Positions 1 through 39,173 of a stretch of 39,173 nt of DNA are shown here, in pieces. A program made the position numbers and the translations under genes. The first letter of the stretch is position 1. Every line of letters begins with the position of its first letter. The stretch is from a virus. Taxonomy: Duplodnaviria > Heunggongvirae > Uroviricota > Caudoviricetes. A model generated the notes under the pieces. That model was given only the letters and a program-made list of their open reading frames with translations, was not told the DNA's origin and ran no database searches. Where the stretch lies: IMG/VR virus record IMGVR_UViG_2563366802_000014; one strand, given 5' to 3'.

Positions 1-516
1 ATGAAATTTAAAAAATGTCTTCTGCCTGTAGCAATGTTAGCGTCATTCACTCTGGCAGGATGCCAGTCAAATGCTGACGATCATGCCGCCGATGTTTATC
101 AAACCGATCAACTGAATACCAAACAAGAAACTAAAACCGTTAATATTATTTCCATTCTTCCCGCAAAAGTTGCCGTAGACAACTCCCAAAATAAACGGAA
201 CGCACAAGCCTTCGGCGCGCTTATTGGCGCAGTCGCTGGCGGTGTTATCGGCCACAACGTCGGGTCTGGCAGCAATTCCGGAACGACGGCAGGTGCAGTT
301 GGCGGCGGAGCTGTAGGCGCGGCAGCGGGTTCTATGGTGAATGATAAAACCTTAGTGGAAGGTGTTTCTTTAACCTATAAGGAAGGCACCAAAGTGTATA
401 CCTCTACCCAGGTGGGTAAAGAGTGCCAGTTTACGACAGGTTTAGCCGTTGTTATTACCACGACGTATAACGAAACGCGTATTCAGCCAAATACCAAATG
501 TCCTGAAAAGAGCTAA
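1..516 (+). CDS. Host outer-membrane lipoprotein, glycine-zipper type (possibly YfgH-like)
   Basis: ORF from track; N-terminal signal peptide with lipobox LAGC; Gly/Ala-rich GxxxG-type segment (GALIGAVAGGVIGHNVG); resemblance to E. coli YfgH is from memory and unverified. Confidence 0.7.
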   Translation: MKFKKCLLPVAMLASFTLAGCQSNADDHAADVYQTDQLNTKQETKTVNIISILPAKVAVDNSQNKRNAQAFGALIGAVAGGVIGHNVGSGSNSGTTAGAVGGGAVGAAAGSMVNDKTLVEGVSLTYKEGTKVYTSTQVGKECQFTTGLAVVITTTYNETRIQPNTKCPEKS

Positions 517-531
517 TAATCAGGAGGAGTC

Positions 532-1071
532 ATGAAGAAAGTTTTTCTTTGCGCCATCTTAGCCTCCTTAAGCTATCCGGCTATCGCCTCATCATTGCAG
601 GATCAACTCTCTGCTGTCGCAGAAGCGGAACAGCAAGGTAAAAATGAAGAGCAAAGGCAGCATGACGAATGGGTCGCGGAGCGCAACAGGGAAATCCAGC
701 AAGAGAAGCAACGTCGCGCAAATGCCCAGGCCGCCGCTAACAAAAGAGCGGCAACGGCAGCGGCAAATAAGAAAGCTCGTCAGGATAAACTGGACGCCGA
801 AGCCTCTGCGGACAAAAAACGCGATCAAAGTTATGAAGATGAGCTACGCAGCTTAGAGATTCAGAAACAAAAACTGGCGCTGGCGAAAGAAGAAGCCCGC
901 GTTAAGCGAGAAAACGAATTTATCGATCAGGAACTGAAGCACAAAGCTGCGCAAACCGATGTGGTGCAATCTGAAGCTGACGCCAACAGAAATATGACTG
1001 AAGGCGGTCGCGATCTGATGAAAAGCGTGGGCAAAGCAGAAGAGAACAAATCGGACAGCTGGTTTAATTAA
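532..1071 (+). CDS. Host secreted coiled-coil protein (possibly YfgI-like)
   Basis: ORF from track; signal peptide (AIASS); highly charged Q/E/K/R-rich coiled-coil-like body; RBS AGGAGG about 8 nt upstream; identity with YfgI is from memory and unverified. Confidence 0.65.
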   Translation: MKKVFLCAILASLSYPAIASSLQDQLSAVAEAEQQGKNEEQRQHDEWVAERNREIQQEKQRRANAQAAANKRAATAAANKKARQDKLDAEASADKKRDQSYEDELRSLEIQKQKLALAKEEARVKRENEFIDQELKHKAAQTDVVQSEADANRNMTEGGRDLMKSVGKAEENKSDSWFN

Positions 1072-1110
1072 TCGATGTTAGTAACTTCAATCCTATAATT
1101 CTTGAAGATA

Positions 1111-1143
1111 AAAAACCCTCTGTAGTAACAGAGGGTTTTGTTC
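1111..1143. terminator. Rho-independent terminator, apparently bidirectional, at host-prophage boundary
   Basis: Stem CCCTCTG / CAGAGGG (1116-1122 / 1129-1135) with 6-nt loop, A-run upstream and T-run downstream. Confidence 0.6.
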
Positions 1144-1288
1144 ATTCATAGTGCAGGGTCAAATCATTCCCACTCAATTATTTACGGATACCATAACCAA
1201 TTGAGTGATAACACTTTTCCAAATCTCAATTTTCCTCGTACCGTTTTATATACCGTCACAGGAAATCAGTACCATGAAAAATGCTATG

Positions 1289-1771
1289 CTATCTGGTCAG
1301 GGTGTCATACTGTTTTTCGCAGACTCTTCCGGCTGCGGCTGCCCGGTCAGCATACTCTGCCAGTTGTCTGTTTCTCTCGAGAGATTTGCTGAGCACGTCG
1401 GCAAGCAAAACTCCGGTGTCTGCGGCTGACGTCCCAGCGCCGACAATGGCGTTATACTGCCTGAGCTGCTCACGGATGGCAAAGAGTTGTTGCTGCAACC
1501 TGCCAGCGCGAGCGGCAGCATCAAGAGCATCATTGCGCGCCTGGTCGATCCTCTGCTGAGCTTCACGTTCATTGGTCGCTTTCTCCTGTTCGTAGTGCTG
1601 ACGAACTCTCTCATCTTCAGCTTTGCGGTCTTCCTTCGCCTGCGCATACCCGGCATCGTACTGGCGACTGCCGTGTATATTCCAGGCAACCACTCCGACG
1701 ATGAACAGAGCAGCAAGCATCAACACAATAAGCATCTGTTTCCAATATGCTTTTACGAATGCCCAGATCAT
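1289..1771 (-). CDS. Spanin inner-membrane subunit (Rz-like i-spanin)
   Basis: N-terminal transmembrane helix (LIVLMLAALFIVGVVAW) then charged coiled-coil body; directly follows endolysin with ATGA start/stop overlap; contains a nested lipoprotein ORF. Confidence 0.75.
   Translation of the reverse strand: MIWAFVKAYWKQMLIVLMLAALFIVGVVAWNIHGSRQYDAGYAQAKEDRKAEDERVRQHYEQEKATNEREAQQRIDQARNDALDAAARAGRLQQQLFAIREQLRQYNAIVGAGTSAADTGVLLADVLSKSLERNRQLAEYADRAAAAGRVCEKQYDTLTR
1297..1533 (-). CDS. Spanin outer-membrane subunit (Rz1-like o-spanin), nested in the i-spanin gene in another frame
   Basis: Internal Met start in the 1297..1716 ORF gives MMLLMLPLALAGC with lipobox LAGC followed by a Pro-rich short body; nested architecture typical of Rz/Rz1. 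Confidence 0.6.
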   Translation of the reverse strand: MMLLMLPLALAGCSNNSLPSVSSSGSITPLSALGRQPQTPEFCLPTCSANLSRETDNWQSMLTGQPQPEESAKNSMTP

Positions 1772-2397
1772 ATAGCCAGCACCTTACTGGCAGTGACGTA
1801 CCGCGCGCGCCGGTCGTCGATGCCGTTCCGGCCACCATTGATAATCAGAGTTACACGTGCAATATCGCCGGTATACTTCATGCATCCTTTGCTGGCAAAG
1901 AACCACGCCGCGCTACGAGCCGCGTATTCGTCCTGCGCCAGCAGTTCAGGACTCTCCAGCAGGTCAACCTTAAGACCGTTTCCACAGTCACGATAGTTAT
2001 TCAAACCGGTAATCTGGATAAGTCCGCGACCACGGTAATTCCAGCCATCACCAGAGGCATTGTTACCCATGCGTTTGCTGTACACCAGATTTGCGATCGC
2101 GCGCTGGCGCTCAAGTGGCAATGGTGGCTCACCAGCACGGCGGCCCAGTGCGTTAGCCTGTCCCTGGGTGAGACGCCCAGCCCGAACGAAGTTAGCCAGT
2201 CCGGTGACGCTGTAGTTGAAATTTTCCTGCAACCGGTTGAAGCCACCAGACTCATGCCCGACCTGAGCAATAAACATTGCCTGATCTTCGGGTTTGCTGA
2301 TACCAAACTCTTTCATCGCAGAAGTTATATGCGAGAACCAGCGAGCGGCCAGCGCCTCGCTAATACCAGCAGCTCGCTGGAATTGTTTAATCTCCAT
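1768..2397 (-). CDS. Endolysin, glycoside hydrolase family 19 (chitinase-like lysozyme)
   Basis: Motifs QVGHESGGF and NYRGRGLIQITG typical of GH19 phage endolysins; start reassigned to internal ATG at 2397 (MEIKQF) with RBS GAGGT upstream; the track ORF extends to 2628. Confidence 0.85.
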   Translation of the reverse strand: MEIKQFQRAAGISEALAARWFSHITSAMKEFGISKPEDQAMFIAQVGHESGGFNRLQENFNYSVTGLANFVRAGRLTQGQANALGRRAGEPPLPLERQRAIANLVYSKRMGNNASGDGWNYRGRGLIQITGLNNYRDCGNGLKVDLLESPELLAQDEYAARSAAWFFASKGCMKYTGDIARVTLIINGGRNGIDDRRARYVTASKVLAI

Positions 2398-2695
2398 GTT
2401 TAGACCTCGATATTTTGAAAATATGAACAACGTTACCGCGTGTTTTAATAACCGCGGCAAGCATGACAGCGTTGATAATGACCTCAGATAAATCCACAGC
2501 CATTGGCGTGCGTAACCAGATTGCATAGACGACACGAACAGGAATACTTGCCGCAGCAACAATAAGGAAATAAGCAAGCCACCCTCCCCATCTTCGATGT
2601 TGAGAGCCGTTACGCCGGAATGTGACAACGCGAATTGCTATGCCAGTACAAATAACTGCATTGGTGATAAGCAAAAAAAACTCATGCGTTACCAT
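2387..2695 (-). CDS. Small membrane protein, holin or antiholin candidate
   Basis: 102 aa with 2-3 predicted hydrophobic helices; immediately upstream of and overlapping the endolysin start. Confidence 0.5.
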   Translation of the reverse strand: MVTHEFFLLITNAVICTGIAIRVVTFRRNGSQHRRWGGWLAYFLIVAAASIPVRVVYAIWLRTPMAVDLSEVIINAVMLAAVIKTRGNVVHIFKISRSKHGD

Positions 2696-3086
2696 CGTCT
2701 TTTCTCCCCGGAATTAACTCGCGTGGATTATCGGAACGGTGATAGAGCCAGATGCCAATACGCACGGCGACAATTGCTGACACGAATGCGCCTGCAGAAA
2801 AAACAATCCCTTTTTCAAAAGAGTCCTGCGTGATGGTAGGGATCAGGCTGGCTATGCCGATAAGAATTGATGCTGCTGGTTTGTAAAAGAGAAGGCCGCA
2901 AAGAAAGCTGATCATCGACAGGAGCACCCGGCGACGGATGGGGTACTCTACTGCAGAGGTAACAAAAATTACCGCCCCAGCCAAAGCCCCTAAAGCAACC
3001 TCCGGAGGGACACCTGCAATAACCGCAGCAAGAGAACTAACACTAAGCCACTGATTTGAAGTTTCATTGGTTAGTTGGAATGACAT
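2682..3086 (-). CDS. Membrane protein, putative holin
   Basis: 134 aa with about 4 hydrophobic segments and charged C-terminus; first gene of the lysis cassette by position. Confidence 0.5.
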   Translation of the reverse strand: MSFQLTNETSNQWLSVSSLAAVIAGVPPEVALGALAGAVIFVTSAVEYPIRRRVLLSMISFLCGLLFYKPAASILIGIASLIPTITQDSFEKGIVFSAGAFVSAIVAVRIGIWLYHRSDNPRELIPGRKDDGNA

Positions 3087-3158
3087 AACGAAACCCGTTT
3101 ATTTGCAAACACCCTGCTTCAGGAAAAGTATACCGCGCAACAACACACCATTTACGGT

Positions 3159-5621
3159 TCAATTCCCTGTTAATTGCAAAACTTGCTCTTCCAGCTTTTT
3201 AACCCTGCGTCTCATCATCGCAGATTCCAGAATCAGAGCCTCTTCATAACGGATACCGTAACATTCACCAGCCTCGACGGCTTCGCGTACCAGAACCTTT
3301 GTCTGTATAAGTGGGTAAACTCCTGCAGAATGCTCTTCTTCCGTCACATCCCTGTATTCTGCCGGGGTCTCATTCCACTTGTCATAACAGATAAATGCCA
3401 GTCGTGACACATCTATGCCTTCATTCTGAAATACACTGATAACATGCTGCGCAACTGCACCAAAGTGCCATCTTGCTCCGTCTTTACCTTTCACTTCGAT
3501 CCTGTCAAGGTACTGGTATGAAACCCATTCCACTCTTTCCCATGCGTCCAGTATTTTCTCATCAATAACCTCTGGAGCAGTCTTGAAACGCGCATCGGAC
3601 AGCACCGTAAACGCTGACTGGGTAAATCCCCCCGACCATGCACGACCAGCCAACCCAAGAGAATAAGTATTCGTTGTCGATGGTGTCATGGCTGAATCAG
3701 AAAACTGTATATATTCTGAATTTCCAGTAGATATTCGAATATTTCCATTTATTAGCGACATAGTGCCTTTAGTATTATCACTATTGAATAATTTCAATTG
3801 CGAACTTATACCGCCTCCCACAGCCAGAGATACATCGCCTTCAGCAAGCATTCTGAATTTATCTGCAGAAACAAGCGTCTGGTTAGCAAGGTTAAAATAT
3901 TTAACCCACCATTCAAAACGCCCTGACATAGTCCCAACGTACTGACCAAGCGCAGGGACGTGAACAACATTGCTATTTGTAGTGCCGTCTATACTGGAAA
4001 TACCAGTCACCGCTGATGCAGAACTCAGAATATTATTTCTGTCACCCGGATGTTTAATTTCAACAAAGTTCCTGATACACCCTTCCTCGAAGGTAACCAC
4101 GCCGGAAGAACTATACATGGGGAATATTGACGCATAATTACTGCGTGCAGCATCTAAGAAACGAATGGTTGTAGATGTCTGCAGATCTCCTGATTCATTT
4201 TTCCCATCACACCCAGTCATTAGAATATTACTGGCAATATTATTATTTCCCTGAACGGTGACGCCGTGCGCCTGCTTTGCGTCCGATTCAGAGTAATCAA
4301 CCAGCACATCCGAAATCAGGTTACCAGTCCCCTTGCCAACAACTACTGCGGCGTATTTTGGGTTGTTAGCCATTACACTGCTAATGATATTATTCGTTGG
4401 GGCAGTTTCCGTCTCAGTTCCATTGTAAACAACGTGCTGACACTCTTCACCAATAACATTGCTGACAATGTTATATTTTGCTGCTGTTTTAAGTTCCACT
4501 GCACCAAACTGAGGATAATTTCTGGCTATCACACCATCAATTAGCGTATTTTGCGATGAATCAAAAAGCACACAACCTGCTTTTTTATTATTTGCGAACC
4601 CTAAATACTCTCCTCTTATATCTCTAACAATGTAACCTGACGGAATACCATTATTCGGATAAGCGATCAAGCTAAATCCTGTTCCTCGCGTATTTGTAAA
4701 TCTGATATTTTTAACCGATACATCATGGCCACCTGAAAATGACACCTGGTGTCCCTGCACACTATCATCTGATTTATTTCCCATAATTGTTAGCGTACTA
4801 AGCATGCCACCATCGGGCATGTTAAAAACCAGATGATTACCATCTCTGTCATACTGTTTTATCGTTCCCCCACCTGTTCCGTACAAGCCACAACGTGAAA
4901 GAGAAACTAAAGATGTATTGAATACCCCTTCCGGAACAAAAACACTGCTAAACGAATGTAATGATTTTGTAAAAGCATCCTTGTTATCATTTAAGATTCC
5001 ATTTTGAGCTCCAAAATCCTTAATGCTGACACCATCACGCATCTTATCCTGGAACGTTCTGTATACCGCTCCAGAACCATACTGAATAAACCAACCAAAA
5101 CCACCAATAACTCCGGCGATTGCAGCATCGACATAATTACGCATTGAGCGATTATTTACAGCGTCCTGCTCAAGTGATGGATCGGCAAGGTTAGATATTC
5201 TGTTTTGCTTTGCATCGTAATATTTTGCAAGCAAAGATGGTTTCATCAATGCACGTCTGAACCACCCAAAACATCGCTGGATCAGCATCGTCAGGTAGTC
5301 AAATGCATCCTCATGAACTTCGGGGAAAAATTTTCCCTGATTGCGAAGATCAGTCTCCTGCACCACATCAAGCACACGCTCTATCGTGATTCGCCAGCCA
5401 GCAGCAAGCGGCGACGGAAGAACCACTGCACCGCCACTATAAGTTCCCGCCCCTGTTACCGTATAACCAGCATCCAGCACTAGTTTTGTAACGTTACCGT
5501 TAAGGTCAGACACCTGAACAACCAGGTCGGATTTTTTGAAAATACGGAAGGTATACGGAAATGATGTCGTAACGCCGTTACCTGTGTATTCGTTGTGGTC
5601 AACTTCGGTTGAGACCGTCAT
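3159..5621 (-). CDS. Tailspike / tail fiber, probable polysaccharide depolymerase with C-terminal S74-type intramolecular chaperone domain
   Basis: 820 aa; N-terminal particle-binding-like segment; central Gly/Asn-rich repeats suggestive of beta-helix; C-terminal motif LSDARFKTAPE matching the S-D-x-R-x-K autoproteolytic chaperone signature; RBS GGAG upstream. Confidence 0.75.
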   Translation of the reverse strand: MTVSTEVDHNEYTGNGVTTSFPYTFRIFKKSDLVVQVSDLNGNVTKLVLDAGYTVTGAGTYSGGAVVLPSPLAAGWRITIERVLDVVQETDLRNQGKFFPEVHEDAFDYLTMLIQRCFGWFRRALMKPSLLAKYYDAKQNRISNLADPSLEQDAVNNRSMRNYVDAAIAGVIGGFGWFIQYGSGAVYRTFQDKMRDGVSIKDFGAQNGILNDNKDAFTKSLHSFSSVFVPEGVFNTSLVSLSRCGLYGTGGGTIKQYDRDGNHLVFNMPDGGMLSTLTIMGNKSDDSVQGHQVSFSGGHDVSVKNIRFTNTRGTGFSLIAYPNNGIPSGYIVRDIRGEYLGFANNKKAGCVLFDSSQNTLIDGVIARNYPQFGAVELKTAAKYNIVSNVIGEECQHVVYNGTETETAPTNNIISSVMANNPKYAAVVVGKGTGNLISDVLVDYSESDAKQAHGVTVQGNNNIASNILMTGCDGKNESGDLQTSTTIRFLDAARSNYASIFPMYSSSGVVTFEEGCIRNFVEIKHPGDRNNILSSASAVTGISSIDGTTNSNVVHVPALGQYVGTMSGRFEWWVKYFNLANQTLVSADKFRMLAEGDVSLAVGGGISSQLKLFNSDNTKGTMSLINGNIRISTGNSEYIQFSDSAMTPSTTNTYSLGLAGRAWSGGFTQSAFTVLSDARFKTAPEVIDEKILDAWERVEWVSYQYLDRIEVKGKDGARWHFGAVAQHVISVFQNEGIDVSRLAFICYDKWNETPAEYRDVTEEEHSAGVYPLIQTKVLVREAVEAGECYGIRYEEALILESAMMRRRVKKLEEQVLQLTGN

Positions 5622-6390: not shown

Positions 6391-7086
6391 ATGACAGCTA
6401 CAAAAAGCACGTCCATTTTTTCTTTCGAATCTCAAGCCGATATACGGGTAATCGTCATTAATGGTGAGCCATGGTTTATCGCTTCAGATGTTTGTCGGGC
6501 TATAGGCATAGCAAACCATCGAGATGCTGTTCGAAAACTTGATGATGATGAGAAGGGCGTCGCTTCAACCGACACCCCTGGCGGTGAGCAAGAATCGATC
6601 ATTATCTCCGAGTCAGGCCTCTACACACTGATCCTCCGCTGCCGCGATGCGGTGACACCAGGCACTATCCCCTACCGCTTTCGCAAATGGGTTACAGGTG
6701 AGGTTCTTCCTCAGATCCGCCGCACCGGAAGTTACATTAAAAACTCGCTCCCGCAGGAAGAACGCATAAAGATGGTTGCCGACCAGGTAGCCAACGCCAC
6801 GGCGTCAGCAGTAATGCAGGCGATGAAGATAGAGAACAAAACCTACAGCGCCCCGCTGAAGCCCGGCTACCGCAGCCTGATTCACTCGCCGTCTGGTGTT
6901 CTCGGCCTGACGGAAAACTCACTGCTGATGAATCTGCTGAACCAGTTACAGGAAGACGGGCACGACGTATCGGGCGCGGCGGCGGAGCTGACCACCATGT
7001 TTTGCTACATCGTTGGTGTGAGCAAGTGCCTGCGTGATATCCAGACGCACGCGGAGTACATCAACGACAAGGCTGGGTTCTTCTGA
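6391..7086 (+). CDS. Antirepressor, Bro-N domain protein
   Basis: N-terminal segment FSFESQADIRVIVINGEPWFIASDVCRAIG matches the Bro-N / antirepressor domain; C-terminal domain paralogous to the 85-aa protein. Confidence 0.75.
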   Translation: MTATKSTSIFSFESQADIRVIVINGEPWFIASDVCRAIGIANHRDAVRKLDDDEKGVASTDTPGGEQESIIISESGLYTLILRCRDAVTPGTIPYRFRKWVTGEVLPQIRRTGSYIKNSLPQEERIKMVADQVANATASAVMQAMKIENKTYSAPLKPGYRSLIHSPSGVLGLTENSLLMNLLNQLQEDGHDVSGAAAELTTMFCYIVGVSKCLRDIQTHAEYINDKAGFF

Positions 7087-24848: not shown

Positions 24849-24925
24849 GTGGCATTAGCTCAGTCGGACAGAGCAACCGCCTTCTAAGCGGTTGGTCGCA
24901 GGTTCGAATCCTGCATGCCACGCCA
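24849..24925 (+). tRNA. tRNA-Arg (anticodon UCU)
   Basis: Hand-folded cloverleaf: 7-bp acceptor stem GTGGCAT/ATGCCAC, D-arm GCTC..GAGC, anticodon stem ACCGC/GCGGT with loop CTTCTAA (anticodon TCT), T-arm GCAGG-TTCGAAT-CCTGC, discriminator G and encoded CCA. Confidence 0.85.
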
Positions 24926-37085: not shown

Positions 37086-37728
37086 GAAATACACACTAAT
37101 CTATGCAGATCCACCCTGGGTATACCGGGACAAAGCCGCAGATGGTAATCGCGGTGCCAGTTTTAAATATCCGGTTATGAGTGTGATGGATATCTGCCGC
37201 CTTCCTGTGTGGGATTTGGCCGATGAAAACTGTCTGTTGGCCATGTGGTGGGTGCCAACACAACCACTCGAAGCGCTAAAAGTTGTTGAAGCCTGGGGAT
37301 TCCGTCTGATGACCATGAAGGGCTTCACGTGGATAAAATGTGGTAGTCGACAACCAGATAAACTGGTTATGGGTATGGGGCACATGACTCGCGCCAATAG
37401 TGAAGATTGCCTGTTTGCGGTAAAGGGAAAACTACCTACGCGCATTAATGCAGGGATCGTTCAGTCATTTACCGCACCGCGGCTTGAGCATTCAAGAAAA
37501 CCAGATATCGTTCGTGAAAAACTTGTGCAATTGTTAGGCGATGTTTCTCGCATTGAACTGTTCGCCAGACAGACGTCTCATGGCTTCGATGTTTGGGGTA
37601 ATCAGTGCGAAGACCCGGCAGTGCAACTACACCCTGGATACGCGTTGGATATTGCCGGATTAACAAATGCATTCAGCAATGCTCCGCTGTCACCAACAGA
37701 CAACCAGGGGCGGGAGCGTGCAGCATGA
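37078..37728 (+). CDS. MT-A70 family DNA N6-adenine methyltransferase
   Basis: Hallmark DPPW motif in IYADPPWVY near the N-terminus; GTG start overlapping the previous stop. Confidence 0.8.
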   Translation: MTKKYTLIYADPPWVYRDKAADGNRGASFKYPVMSVMDICRLPVWDLADENCLLAMWWVPTQPLEALKVVEAWGFRLMTMKGFTWIKCGSRQPDKLVMGMGHMTRANSEDCLFAVKGKLPTRINAGIVQSFTAPRLEHSRKPDIVREKLVQLLGDVSRIELFARQTSHGFDVWGNQCEDPAVQLHPGYALDIAGLTNAFSNAPLSPTDNQGRERAA

Positions 37729-37919
37729 ACAGGGCATCACCAGCAGATTTAAGGAAATGCCTTGAAACTGCAAACATGCTTGCACACAGCGGGATCAGGT
37801 TTGTTCCAATTCCCGCTGTCACTGATGCTGAATTTGCAACGCTGTCAGCAATATTCGCAGACAAAATTGAATCACTGGCAGCAGAAGCCGAGATGGAAGA
37901 AAATCAGCAGAACTATTAA
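37725..37919 (+). CDS. Small hypothetical protein (64 aa)
   Basis: ATG 37725 overlaps the methyltransferase stop (ATGA); the longer track ORF from 37605 is probably not the real start. Confidence 0.45.
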   Translation: MNRASPADLRKCLETANMLAHSGIRFVPIPAVTDAEFATLSAIFADKIESLAAEAEMEENQQNY

Positions 37920-37922
37920 ACG

Positions 37923-39173
37923 TTATTCTCCCGCCATCCACTTCTCAAACTTCGACGGGGAGAACGGAATCAGATCCGTATGCTCCCCGTCAATCCAGGA
38001 ATCAATCATATCTGCCCACTGCTGCAACATGTAGGCGCGCTGTCTGGCGTATTCCGCTTTGTTATATACGGCGCGCACACCTTTCTGCTCATGTGCCAGA
38101 GCCTTTTCAATCCAGTCTGAAGGATAACCAGCCTCATGCAACAACGTACTGGCTGTACGGCGCATATCGTGTACGGTGAAGTCCTGAATATGCTCACCAT
38201 CTTCATTTATTATTTTCACCGTTCTGTCGATCAGTGAGTTCAACGCGGCATTAGATAATGGCTTCCGGAAATTGTAACGACCAGGAACCAGGTATTCACT
38301 TCCACCAGCGCACATCTGCAACCCAACCAATATATCCTGTGCTTGTTTAGGCAGGTAAATAACGTGCGCCCGGCTTCCCTTCATGCGGTCTGAAGGAATT
38401 GTCCATGTCCATTTTTTAAAATCTATTTCATCCCACGTTGCATTGGTGAATTCGCCTTTACGAACCATAGTGATAAGCACCAGCTTTAAAGCCATTTTCA
38501 TAGTGCCCATAGCACCAATGGCATCCAGCGTGCGGAAGAACAGACCAATTTCTTCTGGTGTCAGTGTTCGCTCTCGTGGTTTAAATATGGCGATAGACGA
38601 AGGTTTAATGTCAGCCGCAGGATTAAACAAACCATGACCACGGTCATTGGCATGACGGTATACGCTGCTGATGATCTCCCTGGCCTGCACTGCTGTTGCC
38701 AGGCCGCCGCGTTCGACAATCCGGTCACACAAATCACGAACCATCGATGTGGTAATTTCAGTCATCATTTTGTTGCCAAGAACCGGAAGTATGTCACGGT
38801 CGATCACCGCCTGCTTCATTGCGCGGGTACTGTCAGCCAGGATGACATGTTTCATATAACTGTCGGTATGTACCGCAAACGTCTCGGCACCACGAATCTT
38901 TTTGATACCGTCACGTTTAGCCGCAGCCGGTGACTGGCCTGCTTTAAGCAGCTTCTTTGCAGCAATCAGTTCTTCTCGCGCTTCTGCCAGGCTGATACCG
39001 TCACGCCCATACTGCCCGATTACCAGTGTTTCGCGGCGACCGTTGATACGGTAGTCATAGCGAAACGAGACCGTGCCTGACGTAAGCACAGCTACATACA
39101 GCCCGTCACGATCGGAGACCTTGTACAGTTTGTCCTGCGGCTTGAGGTTTTTTAATTTTGTATCGGTAAGCAC
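37923..39173 (-). CDS. int: Tyrosine integrase (P4-type); N-terminus at or just beyond the window edge
   Basis: C-terminal catalytic region HDMRRTASTLLHEAGYPSDWIEKALAH and a downstream Tyr in VYNKAEY; N-terminal arm-binding-like segment; ORF runs to the window end with GTG at the edge, so the true start may lie outside. Confidence 0.85.
   Translation of the reverse strand: MLTDTKLKNLKPQDKLYKVSDRDGLYVAVLTSGTVSFRYDYRINGRRETLVIGQYGRDGISLAEAREELIAAKKLLKAGQSPAAAKRDGIKKIRGAETFAVHTDSYMKHVILADSTRAMKQAVIDRDILPVLGNKMMTEITTSMVRDLCDRIVERGGLATAVQAREIISSVYRHANDRGHGLFNPAADIKPSSIAIFKPRERTLTPEEIGLFFRTLDAIGAMGTMKMALKLVLITMVRKGEFTNATWDEIDFKKWTWTIPSDRMKGSRAHVIYLPKQAQDILVGLQMCAGGSEYLVPGRYNFRKPLSNAALNSLIDRTVKIINEDGEHIQDFTVHDMRRTASTLLHEAGYPSDWIEKALAHEQKGVRAVYNKAEYARQRAYMLQQWADMIDSWIDGEHTDLIPFSPSKFEKWMAGE

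Follow-up and report, generated by a model that had tools for sequence, protein, structure and literature searches.

At the left end of the stretch of DNA analysed here (39,173 nucleotides, called the window throughout) host genes give way to a prophage, and the locus raises the questions of where exactly the one ends and the other begins, and of what an inverted repeat close to that boundary may do. A first-pass annotation made from the sequence alone had placed a candidate host-prophage junction in the 217 bp between the stop of the last host gene and that of the spanin gene (positions 1072–1288), together with a bidirectional terminator and a 9-bp inverted repeat. The features needed to locate the junction are the following.

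1–516, plus strand: yfgH, glycine-zipper outer membrane lipoprotein (RefSeq annotation of matching genomes; Pfam Rick_17kDa_Anti).
532–1071, plus strand: yfgI, DUF5384 (RefSeq annotation of matching genomes; Pfam DUF5384, E = 7.5e-62).
1111–1143, both strands: predicted host bidirectional intrinsic terminator, AAAAACCCTCTGTAGTAACAGAGGGTTTTGTTC (terminator scan and folding).
1162–1178: att core, attL copy, AATCATTCCCACTCAAT (overlap of host and phage matches; 17-bp direct repeat in XH992; published core).
1168–1178: host-independent part of the core, TCCCACTCAAT (kept in attL sites of other host backgrounds).
1289–1771, minus strand: i-spanin, DUF2514, Rz-like, the last gene of the lysis cassette (Pfam E = 4e-45; epsilon15/phiV10 annotation).
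37923–39173, minus strand: tyrosine integrase of 416 aa (Pfam Arm-DNA-bind_3, E = 3.8e-20; Phage_int_M; Phage_integrase).

The interval 1072–1288 is, with a probability of about 0.9, the attL junction of an integrated Uetakevirus (a podovirus of the epsilon15/phiV10/ZX5 type) at the 3' end of guaA. Its limits were as claimed: the stop of yfgI ends at 1071, and the spanin stop codon occupies 1289–1291 on the minus strand. In a megablast search with positions 1–1400, the locus was present in 5,422 of 5,426 complete E. coli genomes, and in most of these the match ended at 1178, with guaA annotated under the match end. The unoccupied strain 5FA carries yfgH, yfgI, the terminator and then the convergent guaA; leftwards from the core it is identical to the window over 1,074 bases, and it diverges from the first base after 1178, inside the flagged interval. 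Free Uetakevirus phages matched from 1162 rightwards (megablast of 1000–3200 against phage records), with an identity to the window of 94.6% for ZX5 (vB_EcoP_ZX5), 89.7% for phiV10 and 82.4% for epsilon15. Since the host match runs to 1178 and the phage match starts at 1162, the overlap of 17 bases is the core. An alignment of six sequences (attB of 5FA, attL of the window, attP of ZX5, phiV10 and epsilon15, and attR of XH992) gave the classic pattern of a recombinant.

In the proposed mechanism, the tyrosine integrase of the phage would have recombined attP, which has the integrase gene on one side and the spanin gene on the other, with an identical 17-bp site at the 3' end of guaA. Positions 1072–1161 are accordingly host DNA, namely the spacer between yfgI and guaA, which includes the bidirectional terminator; 1162–1178 are the core common to host and phage, and 1179–1288 the spanin-side arm of attP. 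That the boundary lies elsewhere, for instance within yfgH or yfgI, or that the prophage is a degraded remnant without a defined att site, is extremely improbable in view of an unoccupied genome that is identical up to 1178, of the other sampled genomes that mostly reach the same position, and of phage matches that begin at 1162; a sister prophage is moreover bounded by exact direct repeats (see below). The direct repeat is thus the core at 1162–1178 and does not fall inside the first two genes, a location that the first-pass annotation had considered.

The junction is a further instance of a known attachment site, of which the core and the target have already been published for ZX5, phiV10 and epsilon15. 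For ZX5, attB, attL and attR were determined by PCR and Sanger sequencing, and the same core is stated as proved for phiV10 and epsilon15 (PMC9782041). On the guaA strand the published core reads attgagtgggaatgatt (PMC9782041), of which 1162–1178 of the window is the exact reverse complement. In all three phages the identical 17-bp core, directed at the same guaA target, occupies the same place, with the Rz-like spanin gene on one side of it and the start of the integrase gene, 190 bp away, on the other. TL-2011b, a phiV10-like phage of a Norwegian O103:H25 strain, was likewise reported to be inserted in guaA (PMC3293862). The TL-2011b records (JQ011317.1 / NC_019445.1) match the window from base 1000 and annotate the DUF5384 (yfgI) protein, so these records include host flank.

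The gene content of the prophage is that of the genus, with a lysis cassette beside attP, a P4-type integrase and a podovirus structural module, as judged from megablast to ZX5, phiV10 and epsilon15, from Pfam domains of the integrase, spanin, endolysin, holins and tailspike, and from synteny with XH992. In the lysis cassette a GH19 endolysin and two holins precede the spanin gene, in which an Rz1-like frame ending at 1297 is embedded (list of open reading frames). The tailspike (820 aa, 3159–5621, minus strand) combines a beta-helix with a C-terminal Peptidase_S74 domain (endosialidase chaperone); its counterpart in XH992 is a different tail fibre of 991 aa, as is usual for a mosaic receptor-binding module. 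Positions 6391–7086 encode a BRO-N protein, and a tRNA-Arg (anticodon TCT) lies at 24849–24925, between the terminase and portal regions; the latter is also annotated in the XH992 sister prophage.

Only a single copy of AATCATTCCCACTCAAT is present in the window, and the first-pass annotation was right that the core cannot be named from the window alone and that the other junction lies outside it. The last bases of the window are the start codon of the integrase gene, whose product consists of an arm-binding, a central and a catalytic domain (Pfam). In the free phages this gene is found 190 bp from the core, on the side of attP opposite to the spanin gene. In XH992, where the integrase region has 99.9% identity, 190 bp of phage DNA separate it from a copy of the same 17-mer, and the body of guaA, annotated as intact, adjoins that copy; the complete sister prophage (40 kb, from guaA to yfgI) has exact 17-bp direct repeats at its two ends, which do not extend to either side. 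By inference from these relatives, the second copy of the core of the window's prophage should be located 191–207 bases past 39173, and the body of guaA, starting with GGTAGCTGGCGG, is expected beyond it.

The core AATCATTCCCACTCAAT equals the reverse complement of the last four codons of guaA, its stop codon and two further bases; on the minus strand 1164–1178 reads ATT GAG TGG GAA TGA, which translates into the tail of GuaA (I-E-W-E-stop). Not all of the core is constant, as positions 1162–1167 vary and TCCCACTCAAT is retained in most of the 37 distinct upstream regions without the exact core. Examples of the first six core bases in other backgrounds (loci L129–L174) are AATCAC, AATTAT, GATTAC, TTTTAT and GCTTAT. 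The variants of the left part of the core reflect synonymous and stop codon changes in guaA (stop TGA or TAA, Glu GAA or GAG). Because TCCCACTCAAT is constant in most backgrounds, recombination may require identity over no more than about 11 bp. The strands are probably exchanged within 1168–1178, and CCCACTC (1170–1176) is the likely overlap region, judged from the flanking sequences. In attP it is framed by an inverted repeat with 7 matches out of 9, TTAATCATT [CCCACTC] AATTATTTA, and in attB, ATCATT [CCCACTC] AATGGT, by one with 5 out of 6; both were found by eye. The 9-bp inverted repeat of the first-pass annotation was also considered as a pair of C/C' core-type sites around the crossover, and was rejected as such: since the identity with the host stops at 1178, the 19 bp between its arms cannot serve as the overlap.

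On the host side of the core, the stem-loop at 1111–1143 was called by the terminator scan on the minus strand (12 pairs with a T-rich tail). Folding gave −20.1 and −21.1 kcal/mol for the two strands, with z-values of about −5.5; an A-run precedes the stem-loop and a T-run trails it. Given the near-equal folding of both strands and these flanking runs, the description as a bidirectional terminator is fair. The unoccupied locus carries the same element without any change between yfgI and guaA, two genes that converge on it, and in genomes with no prophage at this site it is the predicted terminator of both. After integration its two sides are turned towards yfgI and towards the lysis cassette of the phage. 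The guaA gene is not disrupted at attR, because the core supplies its last four codons and stop codon; it is, however, parted from its own terminator, which remains at attL, now downstream of the lysis cassette.

The phage brings a terminator of its own, CCCTCTGTAAAAACAGAGGG, which is near-identical to the host copy, CCCTCTGTAGTAACAGAGGG. The 8-bp stem and the A-run are the same in both, with CCCTCTGT-AAAA-ACAGAGGG in the phage and CCCTCTGT-AGTA-ACAGAGGG in the host. It is found about 45 bp from the core, on the phage side of attR in XH992 (L003, 4194–4220) and at about 2432–2458 in epsilon15 (L001). After integration, this predicted terminator would replace the host one behind guaA, between guaA and the integrase gene. 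The presence of a phage copy of the guaA/yfgI terminator suggests that the attP region descends from a captured 3' flank of guaA.

For the phage side of the core, 125 core occurrences were collected (120 IMG/VR stretches, the window and loci fetched earlier), and a conservation profile was made from the 73 distinct spanin-side arms among them. By orientation, 73 of the 125 occurrences are of the attL type, with host DNA to the left and phage DNA to the right; host DNA is thus part of many 'viral contigs' in IMG/VR. The anatomy of the arm, including the inverted repeat, is as follows.

1171–1179: left arm of the inverted repeat, CACTCAATT, consisting of the last 8 nt of the core and the first phage-specific base.
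1179–1186: phage block adjoining the core, TATTTACG, at least 90% conserved in the 73 distinct arms.
1187–1191: variable centre of the extended palindrome (45–65% column identity), the loop of the predicted hairpin.
1192–1213: conserved phage box, CATAACCAATTGAsTGATAACA, at least 80–90% conserved except for 1205.
1199–1207: right arm of the inverted repeat, AATTGAGTG, inside the conserved box 1192–1213.
1214–1237: spacer, mostly variable with short conserved runs.
1238–1275: arm-type boxes and a further conserved block, almost invariant.
1239–1259, plus strand: two direct arm-type boxes, putative sites for the arm-binding domain of the integrase, with TACCGT at 1239 and 1251, 12 bp apart.
1260–1275: conserved non-coding block between the arm-type boxes and the spanin stop, AGGAAATCAGTACCAT (conservation profile).

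Position 1205 is about half G and half C among the relatives. The TATTTACG block, the CAATTGA box and the arm boxes ATACCGTCAC recur in the arms of ZX5, phiV10 and epsilon15; the window differs from ZX5 and phiV10 in the centre (1187–1191) and in the stretch 1214–1235, and from epsilon15 in that the right arm of the repeat is degenerate there (ATTGAATTG). The full arm-type box ATACCGTCAC is situated at 1250–1259. Seen from the core, ATACCGTCAC/TACCGT occurs at +77 and +88 (1239 and 1250), and the integrase-side arm of XH992 has the 10-mer once inverted, at −163, and once direct, at −134. In the whole 39-kb window the 10-mer occurs only 3 times, and its equivalent is annotated as an integrase binding site in the GenBank record of epsilon15. 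The arm-type boxes, taken together with the arm-binding domain of the integrase, make a lambda-like heterobivalent design likely, as far as can be read from sequence.

Copies of ATACCGTCAC are also present inside the integrase gene, at 38905–38914 and 38995–39004, 90 bp apart in the N-terminal coding region. With their flanks both are identical over 13 nt (TGATACCGTCACG), and each encodes R-D-G-I (residues 57–60 and 87–90). The equivalent sites are marked as integrase-binding in the epsilon15 record; the intragenic copies may be DNA sites or a repeat of the protein.

Some further repeats were noted in the arm. The AGGAAATCAGTACCAT block resembles the left part of the core (AAATCAGTACCA versus AAATCATTCCCA, a direct repeat with 10 matches out of 12) and is one mismatch away from the IHF consensus. 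A third copy of CTCAATT at 1225–1231, evenly spaced at 26 bp from the other two, was dismissed as it falls in poorly conserved columns. The direct repeat CACTTTTCC/CAATTTTCC (1212–1235) lies in a variable stretch and is probably due to chance.

The 9-bp inverted repeat itself exists as described, with CACTCAATT at 1171–1179, AATTGAGTG at 1199–1207 and 19 nt in between. It is distinct from the core, but its left arm reaches into the core's right end. In simulations with a first-order Markov model and loops of 3–30 nt, a perfect 9-bp inverted repeat arose in 3.0% of the cases for 1072–1288 and in 1.5% for 1144–1288, and the whole window contains 13 such pairs of 9-mers, several of which overlap within the same terminator stems. 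By itself the repeat is thus only mildly unexpected. It is non-trivial because it is positioned on the att core and because its right arm is conserved, lying in a block with at least 80–90% conservation and variable stretches around it (73 distinct arms).

The repeat could lack a function of its own: the core, which derives from guaA, and a conserved phage box that works independently of its complementarity to the core might resemble each other by chance or for historical reasons. The low but not extreme simulated frequencies fit this explanation, the more so as the reader had scanned 39 kb. The repeat is perfect in only 21 of 52 distinct relatives (about 40%), its right arm is degenerate in epsilon15, and covariation is absent. 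Against chance, the palindrome goes well beyond 9 bp: arms of 17 nt (1171–1187 and 1191–1207) are 82% complementary, an imperfect extended palindrome spans 1170–1208, and 93% of the cells of the extended hairpin are paired across the 52 distinct spanin-side arms. The integrase-side arm moreover holds a mirror feature about 22 bp from the core, a symmetry that is hard to ascribe to chance. We regard it as unlikely that the repeat has no function of its own.

The extended repeat might alternatively act as RNA. Transcribed from the minus strand, 1170–1208 would form a hairpin in the untranslated 3' region of the lysis mRNA, ahead of the terminator, where it would stabilise the 3' end or be processed by an RNase III-type enzyme; it would not be a binding site for protein on the DNA. 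The minus-strand RNA folds with −18 kcal/mol (z = −4.35, 0 of 200 shuffles as good) and the plus strand with −11.6 kcal/mol, a difference due to three G-U pairs that are possible only in the transcribed strand. Several properties of the relatives agree with a hairpin: the stems are conserved around a variable 5-nt centre, the frequent one-sided changes preserve pairing (U to C in column 8 and G to A in column 18, each in 9 sequences), and the columns predicted to be unpaired (7, 19 and 26–28) vary freely. Several RNase III sites are predicted in this spacer in the epsilon15 record. The central pair (1173/1205), however, is a G-G mismatch in 30 of the 52 distinct relatives, the hairpin has no T-tail of its own, and Rfam gave no matching family; for 900–1500 only PyrR was returned, with 24.8 bits against a threshold of 54 bits (E = 0.36), a chance match.

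Covariation was of no help to the hairpin either. Every measure in the 52 distinct arms equalled that of shuffled controls, and the one pair with changes on both sides was no more than these controls yield. The equality follows from the core-side arm, which is frozen by guaA coding and cannot vary, and this makes the conservation of pairing uninformative; covariation was accordingly discarded as evidence for structure. Relatives with a divergent core were sought via the arm-type box, and most of the variation found was in the host-derived left part of the core. Three divergent elements with the core CACTCGAT showed no matching change in the distal arm, which is a weak test as their distal arms are unrelated. 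From the shuffled controls and the unchanged distal arms of the CACTCGAT elements it follows that selection for complementarity of the arms is not demonstrated, and we consider the RNA hairpin doubtful.

A protein-binding role is the most likely reading of the repeat on the basis of its sequence and placement. More specifically, the arms may be inverted IHF-type bending sites comparable to H' in the P' arm of lambda, a tentative assignment that we place somewhat below even odds. An IHF-like motif, ACTCAATTNNTTA, is present on both arms, at 1172–1184 on the plus strand and at 1194–1206 on the minus strand. On the latter strand two matches overlap, ACTCAATTGGTTA at 1194–1206 and TATCACTCAATTG at 1198–1210, and all three matches are one mismatch away from the consensus WATCAANNNNTTR. 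With at most 1 mismatch allowed, 3 matches were found in 145 bp versus 0.38 expected (P = 0.01), all of them on the two arms; they are not independent, the arms being copies of each other. In the whole window the exact consensus occurred 5 times versus 3.2 expected, each time outside the att region, where only matches with at most 1 mismatch are enriched. The commonest variant among the relatives, G to C at 1205, turns TATCACTCAATTG into the exact match WATCARNNNNTTR, and the GenBank record of epsilon15 has predicted IHF sites at the equivalent two places.

Some observations speak against IHF. Each match in the window deviates from the consensus at one position; the relatives, in one register, differ in the 'AT' of WATCAR (AT, GT, GC, AC, TT) and agree throughout in the supposedly free NNNN (TCAA). 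Two inverted IHF sites 22 bp apart could, furthermore, hardly be occupied jointly. The right arm sits 20 bp further into the attP arm, between the core and the arm-type integrase boxes; if the arms are nevertheless bending sites, bending would fold the spanin-side arm such that integrase bound at 1239–1259 reaches the core. Of the three readings, the IHF-type site ranks first, the RNA hairpin second and the absence of a function of its own third.

The mirror feature on the integrase-side arm is an inverted copy of the left end of the core, about 20–22 bp from the core. It reads GGAATGA, or ATGATT in other relatives; in XH992 (L003) it is found at 4238–4244, with the core at 4265–4281, and in epsilon15 (L001) at about 2476–2484. 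The attP of the genus might thus consist of two palindromes placed back to back, with the core supplying the inner arm of each: the right half of the core may pair with AATTGAGTG, 19 bp off, and the left half with GGAATGA/ATGATT, about 22 bp off. The resulting hairpins may be functional in the lysis and guaA transcripts or as extruded DNA, and not simply be sites for IHF or integrase. We deem this improbable, more so than any of the three readings above; if true, the hairpins would couple the fate of the transcripts or the action of the integrase to the integration state.

The attachment site can be compared with two known systems. In lambda attP, the P' arm has the order C' - H' - P'1 P'2 P'3, and a heterobivalent tyrosine integrase acts on DNA that is bent by IHF. 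The arm described here similarly has a core, an IHF-like box about 30 bp from the centre of the core and tandem direct boxes at about 75–90 bp; the integrase has a separate N-terminal arm-binding domain, and both arms carry repeated arm-type sites. The sequences of the two systems are not similar, however, and the arm is the one distal to the integrase gene. The integrase gene has its 5' end next to attP and points away from it, the target is the end of a protein-coding gene, and the binding of IHF and integrase in this phage is predicted.

Integrases of the P4 family target the 3' ends of genes, mostly tRNA genes, and the target is restored by a phage-borne copy. The present integrase resembles them in its Arm-DNA-bind_3 N-terminal domain, and the GenBank record of phiV10 assigns it to the INT_P4 family. 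As in that family, the core duplicates the 3' end of the target, which survives, and attP adjoins the 5' end of int. Unlike the usual case, the target guaA is protein-coding and only 15 coding and stop bases are duplicated.

Overall, the left boundary of the prophage is fixed at 1162–1178. The fine structure of the attP arms (the IHF-like palindrome, the arm boxes and the copy of the terminator) is present in the accessible records and papers as prediction only. About 10% of the complete E. coli genomes (554 of 5,426) contain the integrase region (37600–39173), and hardly any of them has more than one copy; integration at the 3' end of guaA is therefore frequent, and the site is a common hotspot. 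The locus would provide a minor but tidy system for a P4-type integrase aimed at a protein-coding gene.
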